Below are positions 7,867-49,688 of a stretch of DNA of 64,000 bases, piece after piece; positions within the stretch are counted from its first letter, which is position 1; each line of letters starts with the position of its first letter. This DNA comes from an uncultured bacterium (GTDB lineage Bacteria > Babelota > Babeliae > Babelales > Vermiphilaceae), in assembly GCA_963695335.1 (NCBI GenBank), contig OY968764.1:704001-768000 (forward strand), read 5' to 3'. The notes beneath the pieces were generated by a model. The model saw only the letters and a list, made by a program, of their open reading frames with translations. It made no database searches and was not told where the DNA came from. The position numbers and the translations under genes are program-made.

Positions 7867-7917
7867 CATGAATTTTCTTTCAAAAAATACCGGCCTTTTT
7901 AGGGCCGGTTATTTGAT
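7867..7917. repeat. About 50-bp repeat with ccggcc/ggccgg hairpin, copy 1 (copy 2 at 8667-8718)
   Basis: tttctttcaaaaaataccggcctttt...gggccggttatttgat occurs twice. Confidence 0.85.
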
Positions 7918-8669: not shown

Positions 8670-8727
8670 GAGTTTTTCTTTCAAAAAATACCGGCCTTTT
8701 TGGGGCCGGTTATTTGATATGATCATA

Positions 8728-31432: not shown

Positions 31433-31489
31433 GTTTTACAAAAAACATTATTGTCTTGGCCAGTTCAGTCAAAAAAAAAGGGGACGCCT

Positions 31490-33337
31490 ATGTGTACTGT
31501 AGTGGGGTATATTGGAAAATCTCTTTGTAGATCCTATATTTTTGAAGGGCTGGCCAGATTAGAATACCGCGGATATGATTCTGCGGGTTTTGCTTGTCTT
31601 GAACCTTCTTCTCAAAAAGTTCTTTATACAAAAGCCTCTGGTCAACTTTCTCAATTAGCAGAACGTCTGCAACAAAATCCTATAGATGGCTATTTAGGTA
31701 TTGGCCACACTCGTTGGTCAACACATGGCGATTTTTCTGAGCGCAATGCTCATCCTCATTTTGACTGTTCCAAAACTATTTCCGTTGTACACAATGGTAT
31801 TATCGAAAATTATGATGAACTGAAAAAGCAGTTGCTTGTAGCAGGCCATATTTTTGAATCTGACACAGATACAGAAGTTGTCAGCCATCTTTTTGAATCT
31901 TTCTTAGCTACTAAAGAGTTTAATGCTCAAACTGTTTCTGAACTTGTGCAGATGCTTGATGGAATGTATGCATGTATTATTATGATGCAGCAGTTTCCTG
32001 ATACACTTGTTGCCATTCGCAAAAAATCACCGTTGTGTGTGGGGGTTGGCGATGGAGAGATGTTTATAGCTTCCGATGTGATTGCATTTGCAGGTAAAAC
32101 GGATAATGTTTTCTTCTTGCCCGATGAAAGCTTTGCGTTTGTTGATAAACATGGCATTAAAGCATATAATTTTGCTGGTCAAGAAATTCCTGTCACCATA
32201 GAAAAAACAAATGTCTCTTTTGATAACATTGATAAAGGTGGTCATGAACATTTTATGCTCAAAGAGATTTATGAACAAAAAAATGCGATTGCAAAAACTG
32301 TTGCAGGGTTGCGATCTTTAGGTTCCTCTTTATGGGATCAACTTGGCACAACCGCCACAAAAATAGAAAATCTTAAAGGCATATCATTATTAGCATGCGG
32401 AACATCATGGCATGCAGCGCGCATAGCGCAATTTTTTTTTGAATCAATCAGTAACATTCCTGTTTCTGTTCACCTTGCCTCCGAGTTTAGGCACCAGGTG
32501 TTTTTCCCTGAGCAAGATACGTTGTATATTTTTATTTCACAGTCTGGTGAAACCGCCGATGTTCTTGAAGCATTACGATTAATTAATGAATATGATCTAT
32601 TAACTGTTGCTCTGACGAATGTTGCAACAAGTACCGTTGTGCGAGAAGCAAAAGGGTATTTGCAAACGCATGCAGGGCCAGAGATTGCAGTTGCATCTAC
32701 CAAAGCATTTTCTACGCAGCTTGCAGCACTGTATTGGTTGGCGCATCGCATTGCGCTTGAAAAGAAGGTGATTGAAGTTGCAACATTGTCTCAGGCTGAG
32801 CAAGATTTATTGCATGCAGCAGATTTGATGGAAAAAAATCTAGAAAAATATCGAGATGTGATTGATACCACATATGCTCCTTTGTATGCGCAGCATAATA
32901 AAGCGATGTTTTTGGGCAGATATATGAGTTATCCACTTGCAATGGAAAGTGCATTAAAAATAAAAGAAGTGGCGTATGTATTTGCAGCGAGTTACCCTGC
33001 AGGCGAACTGAAACATGGTTCTCTTGCTCTTGTTGATGACACTGTTCCTGTCTATGTTTTTTCTTATCCAGATCCAACAATTTATCAAAAGTTTGTTTCT
33101 AACGTGCATGAAGTTAAAGCACGTGGTGGGCATGTGATTGCATTTGCGTATGAAGGGCAGCATGAGTTGTGTGAATTGGCCGAAACGGCATTTGTTATTT
33201 CTGGTGAATTTCCACCATTGCTTGGTGTATTGGTAACACTCGGCGTGATGCAATATTTTGTGTACGCGGTCGCTCGCGAGCGTGGATGCCCGATCGATAA
33301 ACCGCGTAATTTAGCAAAATCCGTGACGGTTGAATAG
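31490..33337 (+). CDS. glmS: Glutamine--fructose-6-phosphate aminotransferase
   Basis: MC start at 31490, LEYRGYDSAG, GHTRW, HNGIIEN, SQSGET, PRNLAKSVTVE. Confidence 0.97.
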   Translation: MCTVVGYIGKSLCRSYIFEGLARLEYRGYDSAGFACLEPSSQKVLYTKASGQLSQLAERLQQNPIDGYLGIGHTRWSTHGDFSERNAHPHFDCSKTISVVHNGIIENYDELKKQLLVAGHIFESDTDTEVVSHLFESFLATKEFNAQTVSELVQMLDGMYACIIMMQQFPDTLVAIRKKSPLCVGVGDGEMFIASDVIAFAGKTDNVFFLPDESFAFVDKHGIKAYNFAGQEIPVTIEKTNVSFDNIDKGGHEHFMLKEIYEQKNAIAKTVAGLRSLGSSLWDQLGTTATKIENLKGISLLACGTSWHAARIAQFFFESISNIPVSVHLASEFRHQVFFPEQDTLYIFISQSGETADVLEALRLINEYDLLTVALTNVATSTVVREAKGYLQTHAGPEIAVASTKAFSTQLAALYWLAHRIALEKKVIEVATLSQAEQDLLHAADLMEKNLEKYRDVIDTTYAPLYAQHNKAMFLGRYMSYPLAMESALKIKEVAYVFAASYPAGELKHGSLALVDDTVPVYVFSYPDPTIYQKFVSNVHEVKARGGHVIAFAYEGQHELCELAETAFVISGEFPPLLGVLVTLGVMQYFVYAVARERGCPIDKPRNLAKSVTVE

Positions 33338-33340
33338 AAA

Positions 33341-33697
33341 TTACTCTTTATATGTGAGTTGTATATTGTACTTTTCTCTAAGAGATTTCTCCAGTGAGTC
33401 TAGTTTATTGTTTCGGATTCCATTATTCTGAATCTCTTTGCAAAGAGATAAATAATTTTGCATAATAATAGCACGTAACAATTCATTATTTTCTTTGAGT
33501 AAATTGTTATTTTGTTCGTTTTGTTGGATGATTTTGTGGAGTAATTCATTGTTGTTATACATTGGTGTGTTTGTGTAAAAAGATCTTATTCTTTTAATTT
33601 GTTTTATTGAAGATGCTTTGGTTAACATAGCAAGTGAGTTGTTGGTAATGGTGAGTGCGCATGCAGTTGTAACTAAAAGTGCTGTTGACTTTTTCAC
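33341..33697 (-). CDS. Small secreted coiled-coil protein with presequence-like segment (array member 1)
   Basis: SLA|MLTKASSIKQIKRIRSFYT; ENNELLRAIIMQN core. Confidence 0.75.
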   Translation of the reverse strand: MKKSTALLVTTACALTITNNSLAMLTKASSIKQIKRIRSFYTNTPMYNNNELLHKIIQQNEQNNNLLKENNELLRAIIMQNYLSLCKEIQNNGIRNNKLDSLEKSLREKYNIQLTYKE

Positions 33698-33737
33698 AGA
33701 ATATCCTTTTGTTTAATTGTTTTTTGTTTGGCATAGT

Positions 33738-33764
33738 CTAGCAAAATCAGTTACGGTTGAATAG
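33738..33764 (+). repeat. Copy of the glmS 3' end (LAKSVTVE-stop)
   Basis: ctagcaaaatcagttacggttgaatag versus glmS ttagcaaaatccgtgacggttgaatag. Confidence 0.9.
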
Positions 33765-33830
33765 AAAATTATTTTTTTAACGTGGGTTCGACTTAAGTAA
33801 AATATTATACGTTTTAATGAATTATTCCTC

Positions 33831-34053
33831 CGCGCTCGCCCTGAACTTGTTGAAGGGTATCTTTGAGCGCACTTCTAATAACAATAGAAAAACAACAAAG
33901 TTTCTATTCTTTAGTGATGATTAAAAAAGAAAAATATTTTTTATTAAAAAAAGAAACCGCGCTCAAAGATATCCTTTTACCCCAATTTCCATTTCATTCC
34001 AATCGGGGACCCCGTCGGAAGGAACTGAAGATGGGGAGTTGCTGACGAGCGCG
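33831..34053. repeat. Inverted REP family A pair with a nested family C palindrome
   Basis: 33831-33870 and 33958-34053; accccaat...ggggacccc at 33979-34013. Confidence 0.75.
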
Positions 34054-34102
34054 TAAGATCAAATAATTTTTTAACTTTTCTTAGATTGAACTCACGTTTT
34101 TT

Positions 34103-34483
34103 TTATGACAATAAGGCGTTTTTATATTGCTGTAATTCTAGCAGCCTTTGCGCAAGAGCCGTCATTTCATGCTCTTCTAAGGCATATTCCATTTGCGTTC
34201 TTGGTTTGTTAGACCATTTTTCAATTTGATCAAGAACTTTATTTTGTTCAGTTATGCATCCCATGAGTAGCGTATTCTGTTTTTCTAAGATACTGTTTTT
34301 TGCTTTGATTGTATGACGATCCATGACTACTTGTACTCGTTGCATTGCTGCCAGTTCTTTGTTGTGCGTAGAAAATGAACGTATTTTTTTTGGACATAAA
34401 GCTTGTTTGATGAGCATTCCGGATGCATTGTTGATTGTTAATGCGCATGCAGTGCTGAGTAAAAGTGTGTTTATTTTTTTCAT
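34103..34483 (-). CDS. Small secreted coiled-coil protein with presequence-like segment (array member 2)
   Basis: ASG|MLIKQALCPKKIRSFST. Confidence 0.75.
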   Translation of the reverse strand: MKKINTLLLSTACALTINNASGMLIKQALCPKKIRSFSTHNKELAAMQRVQVVMDRHTIKAKNSILEKQNTLLMGCITEQNKVLDQIEKWSNKPRTQMEYALEEHEMTALAQRLLELQQYKNALLS

Positions 34484-34525
34484 GAAATGTCTTTCTCTTT
34501 TTATTGTTTTTTTGTTTGGCGTAGC

Positions 34526-34552
34526 TTAGCAAAATCAGTCACGGTTGAATAG
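34526..34552 (+). repeat. Second copy of the glmS 3' end
   Basis: ttagcaaaatcagtcacggttgaatag. Confidence 0.9.
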
Positions 34553-34556
34553 GAAT

Positions 34557-34943
34557 TTATTCCTTGGTATTAATTTTGAGGTTATATTGTTTTTCGAGTT
34601 TTTGATGCAAAGTGTTCAATGTTACATAATGATTAGCAGTTGGCATTTTAGACAAGCAATTGTGCAGGATCGAAAAGTATAGAACATTTTGTTGAAGTAG
34701 AGCGCGTAGCAATGCATTATTCTCTTTATTTTGTTCAATAATTTCGCGTAATAAATCCCTGTTATCTTTTGTTGAAATGTTAAGATCACTCTTTTGAAAT
34801 ATAAGGGGATGATCATGAGAGCTTGTTTTTGTACAGAAAGATCTTAGTTTTTTTATGTGGAAAGATTTTGTGGTTAACATACCACATGAGTTGCTGGTGA
34901 TAGCAAGTGTGCATGTCAGCAATAATTCTTTATTTATCTTCAT
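34557..34943 (-). CDS. Small secreted coiled-coil protein with presequence-like segment (array member 3)
   Basis: SCG|MLTTKSFHIKKLRSFCT; ENNALLRALLQQN. Confidence 0.75.
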   Translation of the reverse strand: MKINKELLLTCTLAITSNSCGMLTTKSFHIKKLRSFCTKTSSHDHPLIFQKSDLNISTKDNRDLLREIIEQNKENNALLRALLQQNVLYFSILHNCLSKMPTANHYVTLNTLHQKLEKQYNLKINTKE

Positions 34944-35308
34944 CTGAGATACTCCAAAGAAAGATCGTTGAGTCTTTCGGCCATATACGTTTCTTTTATT
35001 TTTGATGCGATTTTATATTTGTTTTCAAGTTTGTCTTTTTCAGAACATGAATAAGCAATTGCTCTTGGAGAACAAAGTTCAGTATGAAGATTTTGGTGTA
35101 GGTGGTTTAAGTAATTTTGTTGTATTATAACTCTATTTTGGCGTTTAATGTCACGTAATAATTTGTTATTTTCTTGCAATTCAGCTACAACGTCAAAAGA
35201 GACTGAATCATAATCAATTACATTTTGATCAGTCTCTTTTTTCATGGTAAATGAGTTGCTGGTAATGGTAAGTGCGCAGGTGAGTAAAAGTGCTGTTGTT
35301 TTTTTCAT
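34940..35308 (-). CDS. Small secreted coiled-coil protein, acidic mature N-terminus (member 4)
   Basis: SFT|MKKETD; QENNKLLRDIKRQN. Confidence 0.75.
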   Translation of the reverse strand: MKKTTALLLTCALTITSNSFTMKKETDQNVIDYDSVSFDVVAELQENNKLLRDIKRQNRVIIQQNYLNHLHQNLHTELCSPRAIAYSCSEKDKLENKYKIASKIKETYMAERLNDLSLEYLR

Positions 35309-35664
35309 ATCTTATCGTATTTTGTTTCGTCTTCGTACAGTTTTCTCATCATATCTCGATATGTGAATTCTGCTTTTTTTTCTGATTTTCCGTAAGCGAG
35401 GCTTCTGTGGGTTTCAACAAGGATTATTTCATGCTCAAAGCTTATATGGTTTTGACTTATAATAACTTTATTTTGGCGTTGGATATCTTTTAATAGTTTG
35501 TTGTTTTCTTGTAATAACGCGTTATTTTTTTCTTGTAATTGTCGTTTTTCGATTTTCTCCAGTTTTCTATTTTGCTTGGATATTGTTTCTTCGTGTTCCA
35601 TGCCACATGAGTTGTTGGTAATGGCAAGTGTGCATGTGAGTAAAGCTGCTGTTATTTTCTTCAT
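35305..35664 (-). CDS. Small secreted coiled-coil protein, acidic mature N-terminus (member 5)
   Basis: SCG|MEHEE; QENNKLLKDIQRQN; likely start MKKIT. Confidence 0.75.
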   Translation of the reverse strand: MKKITAALLTCTLAITNNSCGMEHEETISKQNRKLEKIEKRQLQEKNNALLQENNKLLKDIQRQNKVIISQNHISFEHEIILVETHRSLAYGKSEKKAEFTYRDMMRKLYEDETKYDKI

Positions 35665-35675
35665 AATTATCCTTT

Positions 35676-36077
35676 TCATTCTGATAACAAAATAGATGGT
35701 GTGTGTGTTATTTGATCAATCATCAATTGTGCTTCTGAATAATTGAGAAAATCTCTATTAAGAAGTTCATTGCCGTTGATGACATTAGTAGCATGATTTT
35801 GTTGTGCTTGTAACCTATTTATACTGTTTTGAATACGCAATTTTTCCAATTCAAGGTCACAAATTATCGCATCATTTCTATCATTAAGATCAGCCAATAA
35901 TTTTTTCTGTTCATGTTTTGTTGCTTTTTTAGAGTTGAATATATTTTTGGTGGGCAAGTGATAAGGTTTTATGTTTATTTGCTTTGTTGTGGATAACATT
36001 GTTTTGGGTAACATGCTTAATGAGTTGCCAGGAATAAACAGTGCACTTGTAAGTAAAACTATTATTATTGTTTTCAT
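35676..36077 (-). CDS. Small secreted protein, basic mature N-terminus (member 6)
   Basis: SLS|MLPKTMLSTTKQINIKPYH... Confidence 0.7.
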   Translation of the reverse strand: MKTIIIVLLTSALFIPGNSLSMLPKTMLSTTKQINIKPYHLPTKNIFNSKKATKHEQKKLLADLNDRNDAIICDLELEKLRIQNSINRLQAQQNHATNVINGNELLNRDFLNYSEAQLMIDQITHTPSILLSE

Positions 36078-36523
36078 ATAATAGAGTCTTCTGTTTTACT
36101 GCTTTTTTTTGTTTGAGAGGTTTTTGGCTTTGTTTGACTTGTCATTGGAATATGAAGCGTTTCATCATCCAATTGTTTATTGTGTGATTTGTATATTTGT
36201 TCGAAGGTTACTAGAGCATCTTTAGCGTGTTGGTCTTTAGATTTTCTAGGGTCATTTTTCATGCTATCTTGATATTCGATATTTGCTTTGTTTTGCATGA
36301 GCATGGTATGCAATAAGACATTAGTTTTATTTACTGCTTTAAGGTTTTGTTCTAACAACTCATCTGTTGGATTATTGTTGCTTGATTTTCTACTGATGGT
36401 ACTGCTCGATTCTGATGTATTATTTGTGGTGAGATTAAGACATTCTTCTATATCCATTTCCATGCCTTGGATATGGTTGAAGATGAATAGAGTGGTAAGT
36501 AAAAAGAGCGTTGTTTTTTTCAT
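36074..36523 (-). CDS. Small secreted protein, acidic mature N-terminus (member 7)
   Basis: IQG|MEMDIEE; TNVLLHTMLMQN; likely start MKKTT. Confidence 0.7.
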   Translation of the reverse strand: MKKTTLFLLTTLFIFNHIQGMEMDIEECLNLTTNNTSESSSTISRKSSNNNPTDELLEQNLKAVNKTNVLLHTMLMQNKANIEYQDSMKNDPRKSKDQHAKDALVTFEQIYKSHNKQLDDETLHIPMTSQTKPKTSQTKKSSKTEDSII

Positions 36524-36609
36524 TACCAGACCTTTTTTTATTTTTTTATCAATCATTACATGAAATTATATTTTGTTCAAATACTGTATTTTGACCAAAA
36601 TTAAACTGA

Positions 36610-36667
36610 ATTTATATTGAATTTTAACCAAAAATATGTCATATTTATATTGAATTTCAACCAAAAA
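36610..36667. repeat. Two 25-bp direct repeats with 33-bp period
   Basis: atttatattgaattt[t/c]aaccaaaaa at 36610 and 36643. Confidence 0.85.
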
Positions 36668-36669
36668 AC

Positions 36670-38031
36670 ATGAGGATGTATGGAATGAAACGTATTATTG
36701 ATTACTATTTACATAGCTGGAAATACGATCTCCTTCGTAAGCCGTTATTGTTGCGCGGCGCCCGTCAGGTTGGCAAGACGCATGCAGCACGCATTTTGGG
36801 TAAAACATTTCCTGATTTTTTTGAAATTAACTTAGAAAGTCAACCAGCAGCGCATATTATTTTTGAAAAAGATCTGCAACCAGATAGGATCATCAGAGAG
36901 TTATCAGCATTTATGCAAAAACCAATTGTTCCTGGTAAAACATTATTATTTATTGATGAAATTCAAGCTGTTCCGCGGGCCATTTTGGCGCTGCGGTATT
37001 TTTATGAGCAAATGCCAGAATTGCATGTTATTGCCGCAGGATCGTTACTTGATTTTGCTATTGAAGAAGTTGGTATTCCTGTAGGGCGTGTTGAAAGTTT
37101 GTATATGCACCCAGTTTCATTTATTGAATTTTTATGTGCAACATCATCAGATATTTTGGTAGGAGCTTTATTTAAACATGTGAACACCAATCCAATCAGT
37201 GATATTGTACATCAACAACTGTTACAAGTTCTTGGTGAATATCTTGCCATTGGAGGGATGCCAGAAGCGGTGAAATGTTGGCAAGAAACAAAAGATGTAT
37301 TGAAATGTCCAAAAATTCATAAATCTATTCTATCTACCTATCGTCAAGATTTTGGCAAGTATACAAGAAAGCTGCAGGTAAAATATGTTGAACTTATTTT
37401 TCAATATATTCCGATGCAGCTTGGTCAAAAATTTAAATATACGGTTATAGAAGGTGAGTTTAGAAAACGTGAGCTTGCGCCAGCATTAGATCTTTTAGTA
37501 ACTGCAGGTGTTGCACAAAAAGTATATCATTCTGCTGGACAAGGAATTCCATTAGATGCGCAAGTTGATCCTCTTGATTATAAAGTTATTTTTCTTGATG
37601 TAGCACTTTCGCAACAAATGCTTGGATTGCAAACGTCTGGTTGGTACATAGACTCTTTAACTGAATTTGTGAATAAAGGGTCGTTGATTGAATCTTTTGT
37701 TGGGCAGGAAATATTGACCTATATGGACCCTTCAAGTTATCCAGCGCTGTATTACTGGCATAAGGAAACACGGGGCAGCAACGCTGAGATTGATTATTTA
37801 GTTCAACAAGAGGGGTATGTTGTACCGATCGAAGTAAAAAGTGGCGAAGGTCGTACATTAAAAAGTATGCAAACATTTCTTGAGTCGCATACCAAATCTT
37901 CATATGGCATTCGATTTTCCATACAAAATTATTCTGAATATAATAATGTGCGTTCTTATCCATTGTATGCAGTGTTTCAATTGGGTATGTGGGATAATGA
38001 ATTGCGTAAAGCGATTGAATTCCTTGTATAA
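36670..38031 (+). CDS. AAA_14/DUF4143-type ATPase with C-terminal PD-(D/E)xK-like motif
   Basis: GARQVGKT, FIDEIQ, AAGSL, GGMPE, EIDY...PIEVKS. Confidence 0.88.
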   Translation: MRMYGMKRIIDYYLHSWKYDLLRKPLLLRGARQVGKTHAARILGKTFPDFFEINLESQPAAHIIFEKDLQPDRIIRELSAFMQKPIVPGKTLLFIDEIQAVPRAILALRYFYEQMPELHVIAAGSLLDFAIEEVGIPVGRVESLYMHPVSFIEFLCATSSDILVGALFKHVNTNPISDIVHQQLLQVLGEYLAIGGMPEAVKCWQETKDVLKCPKIHKSILSTYRQDFGKYTRKLQVKYVELIFQYIPMQLGQKFKYTVIEGEFRKRELAPALDLLVTAGVAQKVYHSAGQGIPLDAQVDPLDYKVIFLDVALSQQMLGLQTSGWYIDSLTEFVNKGSLIESFVGQEILTYMDPSSYPALYYWHKETRGSNAEIDYLVQQEGYVVPIEVKSGEGRTLKSMQTFLESHTKSSYGIRFSIQNYSEYNNVRSYPLYAVFQLGMWDNELRKAIEFLV

Positions 38032-38080
38032 AATCAAATTTTTAAGATTCTTGAAAATAGGTGTTTTTTCTAATATCATG

Positions 38081-38113
38081 AGCTAAAGGTAACGCTACAT
38101 GTAACCTTTAGCT
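38081..38113. promoter_or_regulatory. Inverted repeat, probable AbiEi operator
   Basis: agctaaaggtaac-7-gtaacctttagct directly upstream of the antitoxin gene. Confidence 0.65.
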
Positions 38114-38129
38114 TACAATTGGAGAAAAA

Positions 38130-38717
38130 ATGGAAAAAAACGTTCTTTTGCAAATTTTCAAATCAAAATCGACTGTATTGTCTTTTAAAGAAATTTTGAT
38201 GGCAGCTGGCCCAATATCATCAGATCTTTTAAAGAGGCGTCTTCATTATTATGTGCAAAATGGAGAACTGTATGCAATTCGTAAAGGTTTTTATGCAAGG
38301 GATAAAAACTATGATCGGCGTGAATTTGCAACTAAATTATTTACTCCATCATATATTAGTTTTGAAACGGTTCTTGCTGAATCGGGTATAATTTTTCAAT
38401 ATTATTCTACTATTTTTGTGGCTACGTATCAGAGTAAAGATCTTGAGTGTGATGGTCAGGAATATTCATATAAAAAACTAAAAGATACCATTCTTGTTAA
38501 CACAACGGGTATTGAAAACAAGGGAGCTTATTTTATTGCTTCTCCTGAAAGAGCGTTTTTGGATGTGTTGTATCTGAATAAGAATTATTATTTTGATAAT
38601 TTGTCTGTGCTTAATTTTGATAAAATATTATCGATACTCCCTATTTATCATAATAAACGAATGGAAGAAGCTGTTTACGCACAATTGAAAGCTTTTAGAG
38701 AAGAGGAGTTGTCATGA
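38130..38717 (+). CDS. Type IV toxin-antitoxin antitoxin, AbiEi family
   Basis: IRKGFY, PSYISFETVL..G, ASPERAFLD.LY. Confidence 0.8.
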   Translation: MEKNVLLQIFKSKSTVLSFKEILMAAGPISSDLLKRRLHYYVQNGELYAIRKGFYARDKNYDRREFATKLFTPSYISFETVLAESGIIFQYYSTIFVATYQSKDLECDGQEYSYKKLKDTILVNTTGIENKGAYFIASPERAFLDVLYLNKNYYFDNLSVLNFDKILSILPIYHNKRMEEAVYAQLKAFREEELS

Positions 38718-39406
38718 CATTAGAAATAACAGCTCATAAAAATACCTTGCTGCATATTTTAAAAGATATTTATAGTGATGCAACGATGGCGCCGATCTTA
38801 GGTTTTAAGGGCGGAACTGCAGCATATCTCTTTTATGATTTACCTCGATTTTCAGTTGATTTAGATTTTGATATTTTGGATTCTCATCAAGAGGAATATG
38901 TCTTTGAGCAAATACAGAAAATTCTTGAACAATATGGCATAGTAAAAAAAGCACAGAAAAAAAGATTTAGTTTTTTCTTTTTACTTTCTTACGAAAATAA
39001 ACTTCACAATGCATATAACATTAAAGTTGAAATTAACCGTAGAAGTTTTGGATCAGAATATGAAATAAAATCATATCTTGGAATTCCTATGAAAGTTATG
39101 GTGAAACAAGATATGGCGGCACATAAATTAGTTGCTATGTTTGAACGTCTTGGTACAACTAACCGTGATATTTTTGATGTATGGTTTTTTTTGAAAAATA
39201 ATTGGCCAATTAATGAAAAAATTATTGAGTTACGAACAAACATGAGTATGAAGGAGTTTTTAAAGAAATGTATTATTGAGTTGGAAAAGATGAGTGATCG
39301 TGGCATTTTATCAGGATTGGGTGAATTGCTCGATGCGCAGCAAAAAGCGTGGGTTAAAAAACATTTGCGTGTGGAAACCATTTTTTTATTGAAGATGAAA
39401 TTGTAA
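38714..39406 (+). CDS. Type IV toxin-antitoxin toxin, AbiEii nucleotidyltransferase
   Basis: FKGGTA, RFSVDLDF, K..A...R..RDIFD; ATGA overlap with antitoxin. Confidence 0.88.
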   Translation: MTLEITAHKNTLLHILKDIYSDATMAPILGFKGGTAAYLFYDLPRFSVDLDFDILDSHQEEYVFEQIQKILEQYGIVKKAQKKRFSFFFLLSYENKLHNAYNIKVEINRRSFGSEYEIKSYLGIPMKVMVKQDMAAHKLVAMFERLGTTNRDIFDVWFFLKNNWPINEKIIELRTNMSMKEFLKKCIIELEKMSDRGILSGLGELLDAQQKAWVKKHLRVETIFLLKMKL

Positions 39407-39448
39407 GAAAAAGGCCAAAGTATCAGTTTATGACATTTTGGCCTTTTA

Positions 39449-39784
39449 TTATTCTTTATTCATATCACAATGTCCAAAATCTCTGTCTTTAGTTTTACCA
39501 GGCATTGCAGCGCGCTCGTCTGTTAAGTCTATGGTAACTCCAGAGAGAGATTCAAGTTTGCGTTCTAAGAATGCGTTTTCTTCTTTTAAACGTTTGTTCT
39601 CTTGCATAGTTTTGTGTAGCAATTTAGCTTGAGGAAATTCTGGAGGAAGTATTGAGTCGTAGCGTAATCGTTTTTGATTGTTTTTTTTGATGAGCTTTAG
39701 CGCAGATTTTTTTGTTGCAAGCATGCTGAATGCGGTTGTGCTGATTAAAGAGTTAAGAGCGCACAGAATTATTATTTTTTTCAT
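39449..39784 (-). CDS. Small secreted coiled-coil protein, basic mature N-terminus (outlying array relative)
   Basis: AFS|MLATKKSALKLIKKNNQKRLRY; QENKRLKEEN. Confidence 0.7.
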   Translation of the reverse strand: MKKIIILCALNSLISTTAFSMLATKKSALKLIKKNNQKRLRYDSILPPEFPQAKLLHKTMQENKRLKEENAFLERKLESLSGVTIDLTDERAAMPGKTKDRDFGHCDMNKE

Positions 39785-39811
39785 TACAGTTCATTTCTTT
39801 TTTTTGTGTGT

Positions 39812-41299
39812 TTACAACTTTACTTCTTCAATATCTAGTATATCACCACTAATATAATTTTGTTTAAGATATGCAAGCGCTTCTGCGCGTGTTGTTACTA
39901 ATTTGGGAGTGTATGTTTGTGCGGTGTGTAACATGCTGATGAGTGAAATACAATCACGCAGCTGATTATCGTTTTGGAGCATCTCTTTTGCGCGATCATA
40001 GCGTTTACTACTTTTTTTCTTTGTTTCTGGAGCATGTACTTCTTTTTTTTCTTTGGCAAGCGGTATACCTTCTTTAGTAACTTTTATAAAGTTATCTAAT
40101 GTTTCTTCTCGGCCATAATTTTTAGTAAACCATTGTACCTGTTCTGTTGGTGGAGTGGTACGTTCAATCATAAAATCTGGTTCAATGCCAGTGCCCTGGA
40201 TGGTACTGTTATCAGGTAAAAAGTAAAGGCATGTGGTAATTTTGAGCGCGCAGTTGTTACTTATGGGTATAACTTCTTGCACCGATCCTTTTCCAAAAGT
40301 TTTTGTTCCTACTAAAAACACCAAATAATCATTGGTTGTATCAGAATTAATTTTCAAGCAACCAGCTAAAATTTCTCCTGCTGAAGCAGTGTAATTATTG
40401 ATGAGAATAAAAATAGGAAGTGTATTTTTTGCAACGGGATTTCTGCGTGTAGCATAGCGTTCAATTTCTTTGCCATGTTTATCTTTGGTCAGTGCAACAA
40501 GGCTGCCTTTTTTAAGAAAGAGCCCAGCAATATCAATTGCAGCATTGAGTAATCCTCCAGAATTATTGCGTAGGTCAAGAATAAGACCTTTAGCATGTTG
40601 TTCTTGTGATTTTTTAAGTAAAGCTTCAATCTGTTTGGTTGCAGCTTCAGTGAACATACTCAGAGAAATGTAAGCAATGTTGTGACTTTTAATATGAAAA
40701 CTCAGTGAGTGTTGTTCTTTAACAACATCGCGCACAATATCGAATGGAAGTAAATCAGGGCTATTTTCGCGCATTATTTTTACTTTGACCGTGGAATGGC
40801 GCTCCCCTTTGAGTTTGGAAACTATTTTTTCTGTTGAAAGCCCTTCAAGAATTTCACCATCAATTTCTACAATTTTATCCATCGGTTGAATGCCCACTTT
40901 ATCAGCTGGACCATCAGGAACAGTATCAACAATAGTCAGATGTTTATCTTTTGTCTTGCGCATATTATCAATGACAATGCCAACACCAAAAAATTCACCG
41001 GAAGTCATTTCGAGCATTTCATGATACGTCTTAGGGTCTAAAAAATTGGAATGAGCATCTAATGAATTAATAAAGCCATCAATGGCTTTGATCATATTTT
41101 CTTTGGGGTCTGTGATAGCGTAATGTTTTTTATGCGCAATATCCATTGCTTGTGCAAATGTGCGTGACCAATTAAAGATTGTTTCATCAAATGTTTCGTC
41201 TGATACTTGTGCGGATGTTTTGATATTTTTTGTTTCAGCAACTGGTGATGAAAAATAGCATGTTATAGCACAGAATAGTGCAAGTGATTTTTTTTTCAT
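39812..41299 (-). CDS. ctpA: Carboxy-terminal processing protease (S41)
   Basis: PDZ GVG, LDLRNNSGG, TASAGEI, TFGKGSVQ; likely start MKKKSL at 41299. Confidence 0.92.
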   Translation of the reverse strand: MKKKSLALFCAITCYFSSPVAETKNIKTSAQVSDETFDETIFNWSRTFAQAMDIAHKKHYAITDPKENMIKAIDGFINSLDAHSNFLDPKTYHEMLEMTSGEFFGVGIVIDNMRKTKDKHLTIVDTVPDGPADKVGIQPMDKIVEIDGEILEGLSTEKIVSKLKGERHSTVKVKIMRENSPDLLPFDIVRDVVKEQHSLSFHIKSHNIAYISLSMFTEAATKQIEALLKKSQEQHAKGLILDLRNNSGGLLNAAIDIAGLFLKKGSLVALTKDKHGKEIERYATRRNPVAKNTLPIFILINNYTASAGEILAGCLKINSDTTNDYLVFLVGTKTFGKGSVQEVIPISNNCALKITTCLYFLPDNSTIQGTGIEPDFMIERTTPPTEQVQWFTKNYGREETLDNFIKVTKEGIPLAKEKKEVHAPETKKKSSKRYDRAKEMLQNDNQLRDCISLISMLHTAQTYTPKLVTTRAEALAYLKQNYISGDILDIEEVKL

Positions 41300-41382
41300 T
41301 TTGTCCTCTTTTTGTTGATAGTAAACGTAAATATTGCAACGTAAGTCAATATATGACCAATATGATTGGAAAGGAGGTTTGT

Positions 41383-41664
41383 ATGATACGTATAAAGAAA
41401 ATAGTACTGAAAGTTTTATTGGTATGCGAGATGGCAGGATTTGGGCACATTTATTTTTTTGGTAGTAATGGTATTGCATCATTGCAAGCGCAAAAAAAAG
41501 TTGTTGAAGATTTAAAAAGCTATATTCTGGTCCTTGATACAGAAATTACGCAGTTGGAAAAAGAAATGTATGCGTGGCAACATGATGATTTTTATAAAGA
41601 AAAAGTTGCGCGTGAACAGCTGCAGATGGCACGCAAAGGTGATGAACTGTTTTATATAGGATAA
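41383..41664 (+). CDS. ftsB: Septum formation initiator FtsB/DivIC
   Basis: One TM, G.NG, coiled coil, EKVAREQLQMA...E; AGGAGG RBS before 41383. Confidence 0.75.
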   Translation: MIRIKKIVLKVLLVCEMAGFGHIYFFGSNGIASLQAQKKVVEDLKSYILVLDTEITQLEKEMYAWQHDDFYKEKVAREQLQMARKGDELFYIG

Positions 41665-41672
41665 GGAGTACT

Positions 41673-42290
41673 ATGAAATTTGTATTACCAGCTTTACCGT
41701 ATGATTATGATGCCCTCGAACCGTATATTGATGCACGCACCATGGAAATTCATCATAATAAGCATCATCAAGCATATATCAGTAATCTCATCGCAGCACT
41801 TGATACATGTCCTGAATTTCAACCAACATCAGTGGAAAGTTTATTAATTAATCTTACAAATGTATCAGATGATATTCGTACAGCAGTACGTAATAATGCA
41901 GGTGGCCATTACAACCATTCCCTTTTTTGGAAAATTATGAAAAAAGATGGTGGAGGTAAACCAGTTGGTTTAGTGGCGAGTGAAATTAATAAAGCATTTG
42001 GTAGCTTTCAAGAGTTTCAAGAACTGTTCAACGCACGCGCAAAAACGGTATTTGGCAGTGGATGGGCATGGCTTTCGGTTGATAAAGAGGGCAAGCTTGA
42101 GTTAACTGCACTACCCAATCAAGATTCTCCATTGATATACGGTGAAACGCCAATTATGGGCCTTGATGTGTGGGAACATGCATATTATCTTAAATATCAA
42201 AATAAGCGTCCGGACTATATTACTGCGTGGTGGCATGTGATTAATTGGGAGCAGATTGAAGAAAACTACTTGGCTGCTACTAAGTATTGA
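41673..42290 (+). CDS. sodA: Fe/Mn superoxide dismutase
   Basis: HHNKHH, NNAGGHYNH, FGSGWAWL, DVWEHAYY. Confidence 0.93.
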   Translation: MKFVLPALPYDYDALEPYIDARTMEIHHNKHHQAYISNLIAALDTCPEFQPTSVESLLINLTNVSDDIRTAVRNNAGGHYNHSLFWKIMKKDGGGKPVGLVASEINKAFGSFQEFQELFNARAKTVFGSGWAWLSVDKEGKLELTALPNQDSPLIYGETPIMGLDVWEHAYYLKYQNKRPDYITAWWHVINWEQIEENYLAATKY

Positions 42291-42358
42291 TAAGTAGTAA
42301 AAAAATGTAGATATCCTATACTAATAAATAAAATTATCTCATCTTTAATTTTCTTGAT

Positions 42359-42392
42359 GGGTCCCCAATTGAAACGAAGTGAAAATTGGGGT
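42359..42392. repeat. REP-like family C palindrome
   Basis: gggtccccaatt...aattggggt; inverse of 60321-60353 and 33979-34013. Confidence 0.6.
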
Positions 42393-42412
42393 AAATAGTA
42401 TAGGATATTTTT

Positions 42413-43900
42413 ATGGAATTACAAAATAGCTCGCCAGAGCTACTAGAAGAACAATATAAAGTTCGTGTTGAAAAAGTTGAAAAAATGCGCGCTATGGGCA
42501 TAGACCCATGGCCTCAATTTAAACCAGTCAATGCAATAAGCAAAGAAGTTGTAGGCGAATTTTTTGATGAAAAAGAGTCTCGCACATATGAGCTTGTTGG
42601 TCGTATTTTAACATCACGTATGCATGGTAAAGCAGGGTTTTTAACCATTCAAGATGTAGGCGGCAAAATACAATTATATCTGCGTGAAGATATGATTGGT
42701 GAGCAGCAATTTTCTTTTTTACAACATTTTATTGATCTTGGTGATATTATGTGGTGCAAAGGAAAATCGTTCCGTACCAAAACGGGTGAAATTACCATCA
42801 AAGCAGAAGAATTTACGTTGTTGAGTAAATGCTTGCACCCGCTTCCAGAAAAGTTCCATGGCATAGCTGATAGAGAAATTAAGTATCGTCAGCGTTATTT
42901 AGATTTAATTACTGATGCAGAAGATAGAGAACGTTTTATAAAGCGTTCTCATATTGTTTCATCAATGCGTTTGTTTTTTAAAGAGCATGGTTTCTTGGAA
43001 GTAGAAACACCAATGTTGCATCCAATTCCTGGTGGTGCAATTGCAAAACCATTTGTAACGCATCACAATGCATTGGGAATGGATTTATATTTACGTATTG
43101 CGCCAGAACTTTATTTAAAGCGTTTGGTGATTGGCGGATTTCCACGAGTGTATGAAATTAACCGTTGCTTTAGAAATGAAGGTTTATCAATTCGTCATAA
43201 TCCAGAATTCACCACCGTTGAATATTATATAGCGCATCATGATTATATTTTTATGATGGCATTAACAGAAAATTTGATTGAATATCTGGCGCGTGCAGTG
43301 TGCAAAACAACAGAAGTACAATTTGGTGATTATCAGATCAGTTTTGCAGCGCCATTTGCACGAATGACAATGCAAGAAGCGGTTGCAAAAGTTGTGGGTT
43401 GTAAGCCTGCAGATCTTGAAGGTGATAAGATTGATGCAGTTATTGCGCAGCATAAAATAAAACTTGAGCAAAAAAACCCATCATGGGGATACAAATTAAA
43501 TGCATTGTTTGAAGAGTTAGTGGAATCAACATTAATTCAACCAACATTTATTACGCAGTTCCCTGTTGAAGTTTCTCCACTCTCTAAACGTAATCCAGAT
43601 AATTATGACTTTGCAGACCGTTTTGAGTTGTATGTTGCGGGTATGGAATTAGCGAATGGATTTACTGAGTTGAATAATCCATTTGATCAGGCGGAACGTT
43701 TTCATGATCAGGCGCATGCGCGTGCAGCCGGTGAAGATGAAACGCATTTTTATGATGCAGATTTTGTCACCGCGCTTGAATATGGCATGCCGCCAACAGT
43801 TGGTTCTGGTATTGGTATTGATCGTTTGACTATGTTCTTGACCAATGCACCATCAATTCGTGATGTTATTTTGTTTCCAACATTGCGAGTAAAAGAGTAA
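42413..43900 (+). CDS. lysS: Lysyl-tRNA synthetase, class II
   Basis: YRQRYLDL, YLRIAPEL, FRNEG, HNPEF, GIGIDRL. Confidence 0.97.
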   Translation: MELQNSSPELLEEQYKVRVEKVEKMRAMGIDPWPQFKPVNAISKEVVGEFFDEKESRTYELVGRILTSRMHGKAGFLTIQDVGGKIQLYLREDMIGEQQFSFLQHFIDLGDIMWCKGKSFRTKTGEITIKAEEFTLLSKCLHPLPEKFHGIADREIKYRQRYLDLITDAEDRERFIKRSHIVSSMRLFFKEHGFLEVETPMLHPIPGGAIAKPFVTHHNALGMDLYLRIAPELYLKRLVIGGFPRVYEINRCFRNEGLSIRHNPEFTTVEYYIAHHDYIFMMALTENLIEYLARAVCKTTEVQFGDYQISFAAPFARMTMQEAVAKVVGCKPADLEGDKIDAVIAQHKIKLEQKNPSWGYKLNALFEELVESTLIQPTFITQFPVEVSPLSKRNPDNYDFADRFELYVAGMELANGFTELNNPFDQAERFHDQAHARAAGEDETHFYDADFVTALEYGMPPTVGSGIGIDRLTMFLTNAPSIRDVILFPTLRVKE

Positions 43901-43925
43901 TATTTAGATTTTTGATTTTGATACT

Positions 43926-43960
43926 AAAAAAACCTCATGTTGTTGCATGAGGTTTTTTTT
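43926..43960. terminator. Bidirectional terminator (second copy at 44752-44782)
   Basis: aaaaaacctcatg...catgaggtttttt. Confidence 0.8.
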
Positions 43961-43997
43961 AATTTACGTGATGAATCTATTGTATATTTGTTTTTCG

Positions 43998-44600
43998 TTA
44001 TAATTTTTCCAATTTAGCTGCTTTATGATCTGCTTTAAGATCGGCATATATTTGTAGGTAATTTATAGTTGCTTGACACTGCTGGAATGCTTGCTGATCA
44101 AAACCAACTTTTAAAGCTGTTTTTCTAGCTAGAGTTATAGGAGATATTCCATCTTTATTTTTTAGATTAAGTTCATGTTCATAAACATTTAAAAGTTGTA
44201 GCATATTAATATTACATTTTTCAGCTGCAAAATGAGCAGCGGTATCGCCAGTAAAGGTTTGTTCATCCGTAAGCAATGCAGAACCACAATATTTATTATC
44301 TTTTTCAAGAAGCACACTTGCTGATCTAATACAATTTTTATTATGATTAGAGCTTTTGTGTATTGTTGTGGGTGAATATAGGCTTTCTGCAGTGACATGC
44401 AACGCTGTTCTACCAAATTTATCTTTTGCATCTATTTCAGCATTAGTTTTAAGAAGTTTTTTTATTGTTGTAACATCTCCATTGCTTGCAGCTATATGTA
44501 AAGGGGTTTGCCCGAATGGTAATTCCTGTTCCGTTGCTAATGTTACAGCGCTAGTAGCGCCAAGAATGAGAGCTGAAAATAGCATTTGTTTTATAGTCAT
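43998..44600 (-). CDS. Secreted ankyrin-repeat protein
   Basis: GQTPLHIAA, GRTALH, GDTAAH. Confidence 0.85.
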   Translation of the reverse strand: MTIKQMLFSALILGATSAVTLATEQELPFGQTPLHIAASNGDVTTIKKLLKTNAEIDAKDKFGRTALHVTAESLYSPTTIHKSSNHNKNCIRSASVLLEKDNKYCGSALLTDEQTFTGDTAAHFAAEKCNINMLQLLNVYEHELNLKNKDGISPITLARKTALKVGFDQQAFQQCQATINYLQIYADLKADHKAAKLEKL

Positions 44601-44798
44601 AATGTGTCCTTTTGAGTAATAATGGTTACTAATCTACTTCACTATTTAGTTTACCAAAACCATAAAAAATGTCAATTAGAAACGTTTGGGTTTAGAGGGG
44701 GGGGCTTTGAGCGATTAGATCGTGCTATTGATGGGGGGTAAGAAAAAACATAAAAACCCCATGTTTTGGCATGAGGTTTTTTGTTGTTTTTGCGTGAT

Positions 44799-45155
44799 TT
44801 ATCGCTGTTTTTTTAAATAATCAATTGCATCAAGGAATGGTGTTATTTGTTGTTGATCTAATCGACAATCAAGGTAAAAACCAAGCCCATATGGTGAATT
44901 ATACTTACTGGATGCGGCGGGTTTACCATTAATAAAATAACCTCGACCGTTATTATTATGGAATGTTACCATTTTATCTTGTTCTTCTTTTGGCCATGTT
45001 TTAAAATCCATGACAAAATCCGCAATAGGTTTGCTTAATTGTTCAACATAGGTTTGAAAAATTGTTTCTTTTAGATTTTCATTTTCCATTGCTAACGCAA
45101 TATTGTTCATAGCAACAAAGATAAGAGTAGAAAGTACTATTTGTTTAGTAGTCAT
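44799..45155 (-). CDS. Small secreted hypothetical protein
   Basis: MTTKQIVLSTLIF...ALA|MENE. Confidence 0.7.
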   Translation of the reverse strand: MTTKQIVLSTLIFVAMNNIALAMENENLKETIFQTYVEQLSKPIADFVMDFKTWPKEEQDKMVTFHNNNGRGYFINGKPAASSKYNSPYGLGFYLDCRLDQQQITPFLDAIDYLKKQR

Positions 45156-45273
45156 GAATTATCCTTTTTTCAGTGATTGATATTTTACGGGTAGTTTATC
45201 ATGTTTTTGTTGAGTGTATATCACTATTTTTAGGATATTGCGTTGGGAAGTCATTTTTAAGTATGGTGCATAA

Positions 45274-45375
45274 GAGCGCTCGAAGGTACCCTTCGACATG
45301 CTTCCTTCTACGCCACTCTTTCGCCAAGGCTACAAAGCGCAGGCAAGGCTACGGAGGACACGGCAGGGCGAGCGC
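45274..45375. repeat. Nested composite REP (family B inside family A)
   Basis: gagcgctcgaaggtacccttcgac[...ttcgccaaggctac...aaggctacggaggacac]ggcagggcgagcgc. Confidence 0.8.
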
Positions 45376-45410
45376 AGAGGAACAAAACCAGTCTGTTGTA
45401 AAGGGGAATT

Positions 45411-47138: not shown

Positions 47139-47285
47139 TTACGTTGTATATATTTTACTGTTCGAATATATAAAGCCAGTCATTTGTAGGACTACCATAG
47201 CCATATTTATACTTATTATTGACTATATGAAAATGATTTGTGTAATCTGAAGATAGATATTAAAGTATAAAATAGGGGTTTTTGT

Positions 47286-48905: not shown

Positions 48906-48938
48906 TATTTTATCTATTCTTTTTAACTGTTGAAAATG

Positions 48939-48968
48939 AAAGCCGTTACGTTGTGTAACGGCTTTTTT
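48939..48968 (+). terminator. Intrinsic terminator
   Basis: aaagccgttac...gtaacggctttttt. Confidence 0.8.
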
Positions 48969-49058
48969 GTGTTTACGATTTTTTATATTCATATTATTGT
49001 GTTTATTGTGTTTTAAATGTTTTTACATGTCATGATTTTTTAATAAAAGGAAGATGAA

Positions 49059-49688
49059 GTGAAGAGATTGGTATTAGCTATTATTATGTGCGGTGGTTAT
49101 TTGTGTGGCATGGAAACTGAATCAAATTCTATTACGTACACCTATGGCAACACAAAAATTAATCTTGTGAGGGGTAAGATTGAAGATTTTGATGGCAAGG
49201 TAGCAGTGATCGTTGTTGGAGAAAATACGCTTTTAACATCATCTTTTTGGGATCGTAGTAAAAATATTGTAGTTTCCGGCGTAGAGCCGAACCTTTATAT
49301 GAGTTATGATGAAGATAATCGTAAAGATGTTCTTTGTTATCACAGATATTTGCAAGCTTCTTCTGATGGTAATGTTCGTCTTCATAAATTTTATCAAGGA
49401 AAAGCAGCAATAGATCGTGCTGAAAAAGATTTATATAAAGCATACCAGAATGCTTTAATCTTGGGGAATTTACGAAGGTTAAAAAAGAACAACCCAAATA
49501 AAACTATAGCAATGCCTCTTTTAAGTTCAGTCTGTTTTCCAAGAGATAAAGCAGTACAATGTGCTGTATCAGTAATTATTGATAGAATTACAAAGTATCC
49601 TGGTGATTATGATATTATGCATCTTGTGGCGAATAGCGACTCTGATATTGATGAGTGCAAAAAATTGCTTGCGGGATATATACGTTAA
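49059..49688 (+). CDS. Secreted divergent macro-domain-like protein
   Basis: KINLVRGKI, L.KAY.NAL, TIAMPLLSS..FP...A; LCG|METE signal. Confidence 0.6.
   Translation: MKRLVLAIIMCGGYLCGMETESNSITYTYGNTKINLVRGKIEDFDGKVAVIVVGENTLLTSSFWDRSKNIVVSGVEPNLYMSYDEDNRKDVLCYHRYLQASSDGNVRLHKFYQGKAAIDRAEKDLYKAYQNALILGNLRRLKKNNPNKTIAMPLLSSVCFPRDKAVQCAVSVIIDRITKYPGDYDIMHLVANSDSDIDECKKLLAGYIR

Follow-up and report, generated by a model that had tools for sequence, protein, structure and literature searches.

What kind of protein do eight small genes beside glmS encode in this 64,000-nucleotide stretch of DNA, and where would these proteins act? The stretch (the window, G000:C1:704001-768000) belongs to the source genome G000, a single contig of 1,366,684 bp with 35.7% GC, and a preliminary description had proposed that the eight genes encode secreted mini-proteins with interchangeable address tags, some of which would resemble mitochondrial presequences. 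We tentatively read the family as genus-specific, effector-like helical-hairpin proteins that would be exported via Sec and signal peptidase I (SPase I) as part of a Met-capped secretome, and that carry a conserved, sequence-specific basic N-terminal arm; our confidence in this reading falls just short of even. We infer that the proteins travel beyond the periplasm, that they act in the host and that the arm binds a partner.

The gene family and its leaders

All eight minus-strand open reading frames (ORFs; 111-160 amino acids, aa) that had been described as a tandem array with a relative at 39449 were located, and the neighboring glmS was confirmed by Pfam. Behind the leader, five of them continue with a basic stretch free of Asp and Glu (20-34 aa, net charge of +3 to +7 over the first 20 residues) and three with an acidic start, as had been reported. 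The genes and their parts are as follows.

33341-33697, minus strand: gene 1, 118 aa, GTG start behind AAGGA; leader 33629-33697, junction Met 33626-33628; profile E-value 2e-41
33548-33628, minus strand: basic acid-free arm of gene 1, 27 aa, MLTKASSIKQIKRIRSFYT..., net +5 over the first 20 residues
34103-34483, minus strand: gene 2, 126 aa; leader 34418-34483; profile E-value 2e-30
34358-34417, minus strand: basic acid-free arm of gene 2, 20 aa, includes KKIRSFS
34557-34943, minus strand: gene 3, 128 aa; leader 34881-34943; 4-base overlap of its start with the stop of gene 4
34815-34880, minus strand: basic acid-free arm of gene 3, 22 aa, KKLRSFCT
34940-35308, minus strand: gene 4, 122 aa; leader 35246-35308; acidic start MKKETD
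35305-35679, minus strand: gene 5, 124 aa; leader 35602-35679; acidic start MEHEE
35676-36077, minus strand: gene 6, 133 aa; leader 36015-36077; basic acid-free arm 35913-36014, 34 aa
36074-36556, minus strand: gene 7, 160 aa, Ser/Thr/Asn-rich; acidic start MEMDIEE; orthologues suggest a start at 36523 (second Met), giving 149 aa
39449-39784, minus strand: gene 8, 111 aa; leader 39725-39784; profile E-value 2e-26
39659-39724, minus strand: basic acid-free arm of gene 8, 22 aa, net +7

In each of the eight proteins an n-region of the MK(K) type and an uncharged, Thr-rich hydrophobic core lead to a c-region, typically N-N-S-x-[GSA], which is directly followed by a Met. The leader comprises 20-26 residues, except for gene 7 with 31, or 20 if counted from its second Met. 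When the eight proteins are aligned, five columns are invariant, and the Met at the junction (Met24) is one of these; in a set of 38 homologues, no column other than Met1 and the junction Met is invariant. For the residue at position -1 these homologues showed G21/S7/A3/T1/C1 (33 of 38, the other five resulting from an alignment offset in gene-7-type rows), and for position -3 S23/A6/T4/G2/I2/L1. The leaders thus fit Sec and SPase I, and the -3/-1 rule places the predicted cut exactly before the Met in all eight, in agreement with the Sec-like leaders of the preliminary description. A single SPase I gene was identified (Peptidase_S26 match of 114.9 bits, G000:C1:702550-703380). Other types of leader were rejected: for a lipoprotein (signal peptidase II), which would need the lipobox [LVI][ASTVI][GAS]C at the end of the hydrophobic region, the leader Cys is preceded by TTA, STA or LLT and lies too early, and genes 6 and 7 have no Cys there; for Tat, the n-regions read MKK, MKI, MKT or MKR and contain no RR.

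Of 134 family proteins, 106 passed the junction rule. Inspected by eye, the 28 failures comprised fragments or gene calls beginning at or after the junction, proteins with a charged residue near the junction, and five members without Met, which had Ile (3), Cys (1) or Ser (1) instead. Since P0095, P0107 and P0124 are basic-arm homologues with Ile at the aligned position +1, one base change from ATG, the Met is strongly preferred and not absolutely required.

A profile built from the eight genes matched only those eight among 4,786 ORFs of G000, with E-values from 2e-41 to 2e-26 and the next match at 0.0013; by this profile the eight genes are true paralogues. A word-indexed search yielded 23 homologues, and an exhaustive profile search of metagenomes gave 123 cluster representatives at E <= 1e-3, all of 70-237 aa and unnamed. 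Within the genus, matches were found in 4 of 10 other genomes at E < 1e-4 (G002, G005, G008 and G009) and in 5 of 10 at E <= 0.01. No full-length match occurred in the 30 genomes of other genera (40 relatives in all); the matches there covered little beyond the leader or were marginal (E 3.7e-4 or weaker). In this profile search of relatives, of the kind that the preliminary description had suggested across Dependentiae, the family is confined to one Babeliales genus. Judged from these matches, the family appears to diverge fast, to be restricted to that genus of the Dependentiae and to be present in only part of it.

None of the eight members exceeded the gathering score of a Pfam family. The coiled-coil core of the NNxLLxxIxxQN type, which had been noticed in most members, was recovered as N-x-LL-x-x-[ILM]-x-x-[QR]-N in strict form in 5/8 and in loose form in 7/8 proteins. 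The AlphaFold2 model of gene 1, based on a 38-row alignment, showed a mean predicted local distance difference test score (pLDDT) of 77.6, with the leader as a helix (residues 3-29), a stretch of low confidence comprising residues 30-46 (pLDDT 52-58), a long helix from 47 to 92 (pLDDT >90) and a short helix from 97 to 110. The mature protein would accordingly look like a helical hairpin or coiled coil, in which a disordered N-terminal arm precedes two helices, the first long and rich in Asn, Gln and Leu, the second short. A Foldseek comparison of this model with the PDB gave nothing at E <= 0.001 (best E 1.7), and a search of the ESM Atlas with the mature gene-1 protein gave no usable match. 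The best match of a PDB profile search was the N-heptad repeat of gp41 from human immunodeficiency virus 1 (E 8.9e-4 on a tandem designed construct, about 0.5 per stretch), which shares the pattern NNLLRAI-x-Q-x-x-LL with the core helix of gene 1 (residues 47-92). This likeness is probably a compositional resemblance between Gln/Asn-rich coiled coils. As a side aspect, it hints at a bundle of the trimer-of-hairpins type. A bZIP assignment was rejected: the best match, bZIP_2, reached E 0.063 for gene 8 only, and the basic region is not contiguous with the helix, a Pro-containing stretch intervening in gene 8 and a low-confidence stretch in gene 1.

The methionine junction across the genome

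The combination of a leader and a directly following Met was considered as a feature specific to the array, and was rejected as such by a survey of 1,360 ORFs, chosen greedily by length and together spanning 91% of G000. Signal-like N-termini were found in 555 of the 1,360 ORFs, and 179 of these (32%) carried a Met directly before the first charged residue, compared to a background of 2.2%. This Met was followed by Glu in 138 cases, by Lys in 19, by Asp in 15 and by Arg in 7, and the residue at -1 was small (A/S/C/G/T) in 171 of the 179. With a rule blind to the residues beyond the Met, 240 of the 1,360 genes (~18%) showed the junction. In this set, Glu occupied position +2 in 133 proteins, a Met-Glu/Asp start was present in 147, and small residues at +2 amounted to 8.8% compared to a background of 36%. 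The leaders end in [LITV]-[HFY]-[ASCG], followed by Met-Glu. Within the window, 17 genes carry the junction, including those at 6450-7271(-), 7917-8726(-), 44799-45155(-), 47286-48905(+), 49059-49688(+), 49714-50430(-) and 50486-51274(-).

A junction Met could also be a second start codon. A motif resembling a Shine-Dalgarno sequence preceded the junction ATG in 0/240 genes, whereas 55% of gene starts and 8% of the other internal ATGs had one. The Met is therefore not an alternative start; in addition, the residues at -1 and -3 obey the signal-peptidase rule. As Met-Glu/Asp is the default start of this genome, the acidic ends MKKETD, MEHEE and MEMDIEE cannot be regarded as address tags, the role that had been assigned to them.

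The junction is specific to the lineage. Among signal-like N-termini in 400 kb of each genome, a final Met was found in 58/178 (33%) for the first 400 kb of G000, in 44/155 (28%) for G008 from the same genus, and in 20/147 (14%) for G034 from another family. The values are close to background in two other Babeliales genomes, with 2/106 for G050 (same family, other genus) and 5/154 for G064 (another family). In loci from other phyla, 0/45 signal-like proteins ended in Met. Our literature searches for the junction or for the family yielded the Chromulinavorax and Babela papers and unrelated work and found no description, by which an absence of publication is not shown. A separate observation concerns G064, where the commonest residue before the first charged residue was Gln (26/154) and not Met, which may reflect a different junction habit.

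The annotation of the first 400 kb indicates which proteins carry the junction. Eight of the 49 Met-junction proteins matched a Pfam family (E <= 1e-5), namely five WD40-type propellers, two ankyrin proteins and one PLD-like protein, and 41 matched none. The other signal-like proteins had families in 37/111 cases, including GspD (the secretin of the type II secretion system, T2SS), GspC, BamA, penicillin-binding protein, OmpA, M23, amidase and a solute-binding protein; three were ankyrin or WD40 proteins, and several were cytoplasmic enzymes miscaught by the rule. The resulting excess of eukaryote-like repeats among annotated Met-junction proteins (7/8 versus 3/37) is significant. By association, the Met junction thus marks an accessory secretome consisting mostly of orphans, together with WD40, ankyrin, PLD-like and J-domain proteins.

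The basic arm and its possible site of action

Among the 38 homologues, the acid-free run comprised at least 20 residues in 30 and at most 3 in 8, with none between, a conserved bimodal split that exceeds chance. For the 106 scorable members, the run counted from the Met was at least 17 residues in 90, 7-16 in 2 and at most 6 in 14, with a mode of 24-31. The 90 arms have a length of 17-52 residues (median 28.5) and carry Leu directly after the Met in 82 cases. The motif [RK]-x-[FY]-[HC]-T was present in 17/90 arms, compared to 0.3 in shuffled sequences, and [RK]-x-F-H-T starts 13-20 residues past the predicted cut. Conservation of RSF in homologs had been set as a test by the preliminary description; an R/K-x-F motif is kept in the orthologues, and its conserved form is [RK]-x-F-[HC]-T. 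The orthologues of gene 1 retain MLTK-SSIKQIKKIRSFHT, and those of gene 6 show ..[RK]SY[QHR]LP.KNIFNTKKAT, and divergent members carry Arg-rich arms with ..R-x-F-H-T/S at their end. Within the gene-1 orthogroup, the arm showed an identity of 0.68, compared to 0.50 in the leader, 0.48 in the core helix and 0.29 in the C-terminus. The arm is therefore the best-conserved segment; this degree of conservation would be unusual for an import signal of degenerate sequence and argues for an interaction that depends on the sequence. Compared to the proteome, the arms are enriched in Lys (1.92x), Thr (1.91x), His (1.95x), Arg (1.79x) and Ser (1.29x), with Ala at 0.72x and Leu at 0.95x; their Lys:Arg ratio of 316:163, about 1.9, equals that of the proteome. 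In the AlphaFold2 model of gene 1, the arm region is predicted to be disordered.

The history of the arm was followed on a FastTree phylogeny of the region beyond it (104 rows, poorly resolved, with window genes 1, 2, 3, 6 and 8 left out). Gene 4 clusters with other acid-start members. The acid-start label needed eight changes on the tree, its well-supported branches force at least two, and acid-start members are nested among basic-arm members. This nesting, together with the arm being present in 90/106 members, points to an arm that is the majority and probably ancestral state and was not freely exchanged; it would have been lost or replaced at least twice. The notion of tags as interchangeable modules is not supported by this pattern, in which the basic arm is the rule and its loss is forced at least two times.

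Similar starts were also found on other junction proteins of G000. Basic acid-free starts followed the junction in 17/240 proteins, compared to 1.2% of 5,602 control windows (5.8-fold), and 13 of these lie outside the family. Where the junction read Met-Leu, a basic acid-free 20-mer followed in 8/11 cases, compared to 1.6% of 619 internal Met-Leu windows. Two of the 13 non-family proteins contain J domains, with scores of 37.2 bits (cut-off 27.8) and of 18.7 bits, the latter below the cut-off. They are encoded at G000:C1:688126-689466(+) and 1028625-1029659(-), and both combine a leader, a junction Met and a basic acid-free start with a C-terminal J domain that contains the HPD motif. A J domain needs Hsp70 and ATP, both of which are lacking in the periplasm. 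A J domain behind a Sec leader would therefore imply that the basic-start junction proteins act where Hsp70 is available, i.e. in host cells.

Taken together as a mechanism, SPase I would cut directly before the Met and release a protein of ~90-130 residues, which would leave the cell via the T2SS or vesicles, the sole recognizable routes out of it, and would thus be directed to the host. The ancestral arm, ML-[TA]-K ... KK-I-[RK]-S-F-H-T, would act after export as a sequence-specific docking or targeting element, and a small number of paralogues, including three of the array, would have replaced it by the default acidic Met-Glu/Asp start. The T2SS secretin, GspC and T2SS-type ATPases were found in G000, while the families VirB4, FHIPEP and VipB, markers of type IV, type III and type VI secretion (T4SS, T3SS and T6SS), were not found in this genome, which is 94% complete. 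The available part of the Babela paper likewise describes the T2SS as the only secretion system and expects ankyrin proteins with signal peptides to reach the amoeba cytoplasm (PMC4378268). Given a Met-capped accessory secretome and a route via T2SS or vesicles, the family is best read as host-directed.

Several points weigh against this reading. Both the gene set and the signal-peptide calls are crude, the latter coming from a heuristic rule (-3/-1 etc.) and not from SignalP. The link between junction and host is an association and not a proof, drawn from 8 annotated of 49 proteins in one 400-kb sample, and the contrast in envelope or export components (0/8 versus at least 8/37) is not significant alone. 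Acid-free runs of at least 18 residues are as frequent after the junction Met (32/240, 13.3%) as after internal Mets (13.8%). In E. coli, several positive charges close behind the cleavage site hinder Sec export, which would make the basic-arm members atypical Sec substrates. The fold and sequence searches (Pfam, ESM Atlas, PDB profile, Foldseek) gave no informative relative that points to a partner of the arm. Furthermore, a structural role in the envelope would be just as conceivable for a small Asn/Gln-rich coiled coil encoded beside glmS.

According to the preliminary description, the SPase cut would unmask a mitochondrial import signal. The Met-Leu basic arm would then serve as a host matrix presequence, imported via TOM/TIM23 and cut near R-x-F by the mitochondrial processing peptidase (MPP), while the acidic paralogues would stay cytosolic. 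Mitochondrial presequences are known for the motifs R-2, R-3 and R-10 of MPP, Icp55 and Oct1, for an enrichment of Arg, Ala, Leu and Ser and for an amphipathic helix. The arms share with them the position at the predicted new N-terminus, a length within or near 20-50 residues, a net positive charge, the lack of Asp and Glu (for 17-52 residues), the richness in Thr and Ser, the Met-Leu start (82/90), the predicted disorder and an aromatic residue with a basic one at the second position ahead of it; a basic, acid-free N-terminus of 15-50 residues was found, given a cut before the Met, in 5/8 window genes and 90/106 members. The ..R-x-F-H-T/S of the Arg-rich divergent members, the R-10-like R-x-[FLI]-x-x-[STG] in 14/90 arms (6.6 in shuffles) and the similar starts on unrelated G000 proteins, two with J domains, also fit. 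A Dependentiae species is moreover described as replicating wrapped by the host mitochondrion and importing ATP, in the part of the paper available (PMC6561590).

The likeness does not extend to the more specific properties. The comparison with shuffled controls had been set beforehand as a test, and the arms scored no better than these: the maximum helical hydrophobic moment (100 degrees), for which genuine presequences did not serve as calibration, gave z-values of -1.2 to +0.5 for the five window arms and, equally uncalibrated, means of 0.07, -0.07 and -0.22 for the 90 arms at windows of 11, 14 and 18 residues. The R-3 motif of MPP/Icp55 is not enriched in the family by a likewise uncalibrated comparison, since strict R-x-[FYL]-[SA] occurred in 5/90 arms versus 3.6 +/- 1.9 in shuffles, or 8 versus 10.6 if Lys is allowed. 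Only gene 2 fits it exactly in the window (RSFS), and its orthologue in G008 reads KKIHSFCA, i.e. HSFC, so that the Arg is not retained. In the conserved motif the aromatic residue is followed by His or Cys and not by Ser or Ala; Ala and Leu are not enriched (0.72x and 0.95x), Lys:Arg equals that of the proteome, and the arm is more conserved than the mature core (0.68 versus 0.48). The motif enrichments stem from the homologous conservation of one sequence, IKKIRSFHTS, and not from independent origins, and there is no known path by which a periplasmic protein would reach the cytosol of the host. Of the proposed resemblance to presequences, the basic, acid-free, Thr/Ser-rich and Met-Leu character therefore stands, in contrast to the amphipathicity, the strict R-3 motif and the Ala/Leu enrichment. 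Weakened by composition, motif and amphipathicity, mitochondrial import seems unlikely.

The family could also act in the bacterium's own envelope, as a small periplasmic or outer-membrane-associated coiled coil whose arm binds lipopolysaccharide, peptidoglycan or phospholipid, or whose arm is a propeptide removed by an exported M16 peptidase of the MPP family. The array is kept beside glmS, a cell-envelope precursor gene, in 4/4 relatives examined at the locus, a Sec leader alone delivers to the periplasm only, and among the exported proteins of G000 is a PqqL-like double-M16 peptidase that has an HxxEH site. Opposed to this are the spread over part of one genus and the fast divergence, which are unlike envelope housekeeping proteins, the Met junction, which the family shares with no recognizable envelope protein of the 400-kb sample, and the three array paralogues without an arm; an envelope role is accordingly judged improbable. 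The peptidase itself is a single large protein with two M16 domains and an intact HxxEH at G000:C1:about 295900-298700(-), and it belongs to the same family as MPP, by which the bacterium itself could process basic arms.

A more far-reaching proposal, which we consider doubtful and rather speculative, starts from the junction as a whole. The SPase cut would give eukaryote-style Met-first N-termini to about a sixth of the proteome; Met-Glu/Asp would shield the proteins from degradation by the host N-end rule, which is triggered by exposed Glu, Asp and Lys, and Met-Leu plus a basic arm would mimic an organelle presequence. The family, two J-domain proteins and about ten others would thereby carry a bipartite leader for Sec and for a host organelle or translocation step. 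The depletion of small residues at +2, which would invite removal of the Met (8.8% versus 36%), is consistent with this, as is the absence of the junction from recognizable housekeeping exported proteins in the 400-kb sample. That the Met acts as an N-degron shield is a guess. If true, the proposal would mean that the signal-plus-transit-peptide leaders of complex plastids have a counterpart in a prokaryote, the first of its kind.

A nuclear or nucleolar localization signal (NLS), or an arm binding nucleic acids or acidic lipids on a small coiled-coil effector of the SAP11 type, is quite unlikely. The motif K-[KR]-x-[KR] was found in 23/90 arms versus 9.9 +/- 2.8 in shuffles (maximum 19), KKIR, KRIR, KKLR or KRLR occur in 4/5 window arms, and in SAP11 proteins, as far as the available part of the source describes them, only some homologues carry the NLS (PMC6255702). 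The enrichment is, however, due to one conserved sequence, and the motif is missing from gene 6 and most divergent members. An NLS needs neither 20-50 acid-free residues nor an N-terminal position nor a Met-Leu start, and mature proteins of ~11 kDa pass nuclear pores anyway. Finally, it is very unlikely that the basic-arm members are not exported but are positive-inside, uncleaved N-out/C-in anchors with a cytoplasmic coiled coil, as the charges on either side of a weakly hydrophobic segment (+2 ahead of it, +3 to +7 behind it) and the Thr-rich, moderately hydrophobic leader cores would allow, since basic-arm and acid-start paralogues share the -3/-1 motif and the invariant Met, for which an anchor gives no reason.

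Related systems and the surroundings of the array

For the preferred reading as exported, host-directed proteins, the closest known architecture is that of the phytoplasma effectors of the SAP11 type. These are likewise small and, in the available part of the source, combine a Sec signal with a basic localization motif near the mature N-terminus in some homologues and with a coiled-coil domain for target binding (PMC6255702). Both occur in genome-reduced, host-dependent bacteria. They differ in that no sequence or Pfam relationship exists, and in that phytoplasmas have no outer membrane, so that Sec reaches the host directly, while the Dependentiae bacterium also needs the T2SS or vesicles. 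Furthermore, the tag there is an NLS, whereas the arm of the family is longer, acid-free, begins with Met-Leu and is the best-conserved part.

Within the same phylum, the ankyrin and WD40 proteins with signal peptides of Babela massiliensis (PMC4378268) and Chromulinavorax destructans (PMC6561590) are comparable, with a presumed route via Sec and T2SS and an enrichment of orphans. The available parts of these accounts give signal peptides for 44% of the coding sequences in Chromulinavorax (PMC6561590) and for 79/126 ankyrin proteins in Babela (PMC4378268), and they contain no mention of a Met at +1, a Met-Glu start, the family or basic acid-free arms.

Leaders of complex plastids and the PEXEL/RxLR type resemble those of the family in that a cleavable signal peptide is followed by a second short address element; they differ in operating in eukaryotic secretory pathways and in showing no sequence similarity to the family. 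In complex plastids this second element is a transit peptide, and in apicomplexans and oomycetes the PEXEL/RxLR motifs lie ~15-30 residues behind the signal peptide. We know of no bacterial counterpart of such bipartite leaders. Some bacterial effectors with N-terminal mitochondrial targeting sequences, for example Map and EspF of enteropathogenic E. coli, are delivered by type III or type IV secretion. They use host import via a presequence-like N-terminus, but are injected with their true N-terminus, whereas the candidate signal of the family would be exposed only after the SPase cut and G000 yielded no marker of a T3SS, T4SS or T6SS.

Dependentiae are widespread obligate protist parasites with huge, almost wholly uncharacterized predicted secretomes, for which only the T2SS is recognized. 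A Met at +1, mostly as Met-Glu, is a possible simple mark for listing effector candidates in their genomes, and the junction raises the testable question why a bacterium insists on a Met-first mature N-terminus. The conserved arm and the arm-less minority (16/106 scorable members) form a natural experiment on a second signal, which could serve the docking of a partner, translocation across a membrane or import into an organelle. Should the arm turn out to direct import, this would be a bacterium using two successive cleavable address labels.

The surroundings of the family comprise the following features.

31451-33337, plus strand: glmS, Pfam SIS and GATase, with the array downstream
36670-39406, plus strand: inserted island, not part of the family, with an AAA_14/DUF4143 ATPase, an AbiEi-like ORF and an AbiEii toxin (type IV toxin-antitoxin pair), assigned by Pfam

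Within the array, the gene pairs 3/4, 4/5, 5/6 and 6/7 show start-on-stop overlaps of 4 bases. The island parts gene 8 from genes 1-7; none lies between the orthologues in G008, where those of genes 8, 7, 2 and 1 are contiguous and adjoin glmS. The array adjoined glmS in 4/4 relatives whose locus was examined. In G002, an AbiEi-like ORF also adjoins the array. A further group of signal-bearing paralogues lies at G000:C1:about 34000-49000, where several proteins of 851-1,602 aa combine collagen triple-helix repeats with a C-terminal Peptidase_S74 domain (endosialidase chaperone), an architecture typical of phage tail fibres.

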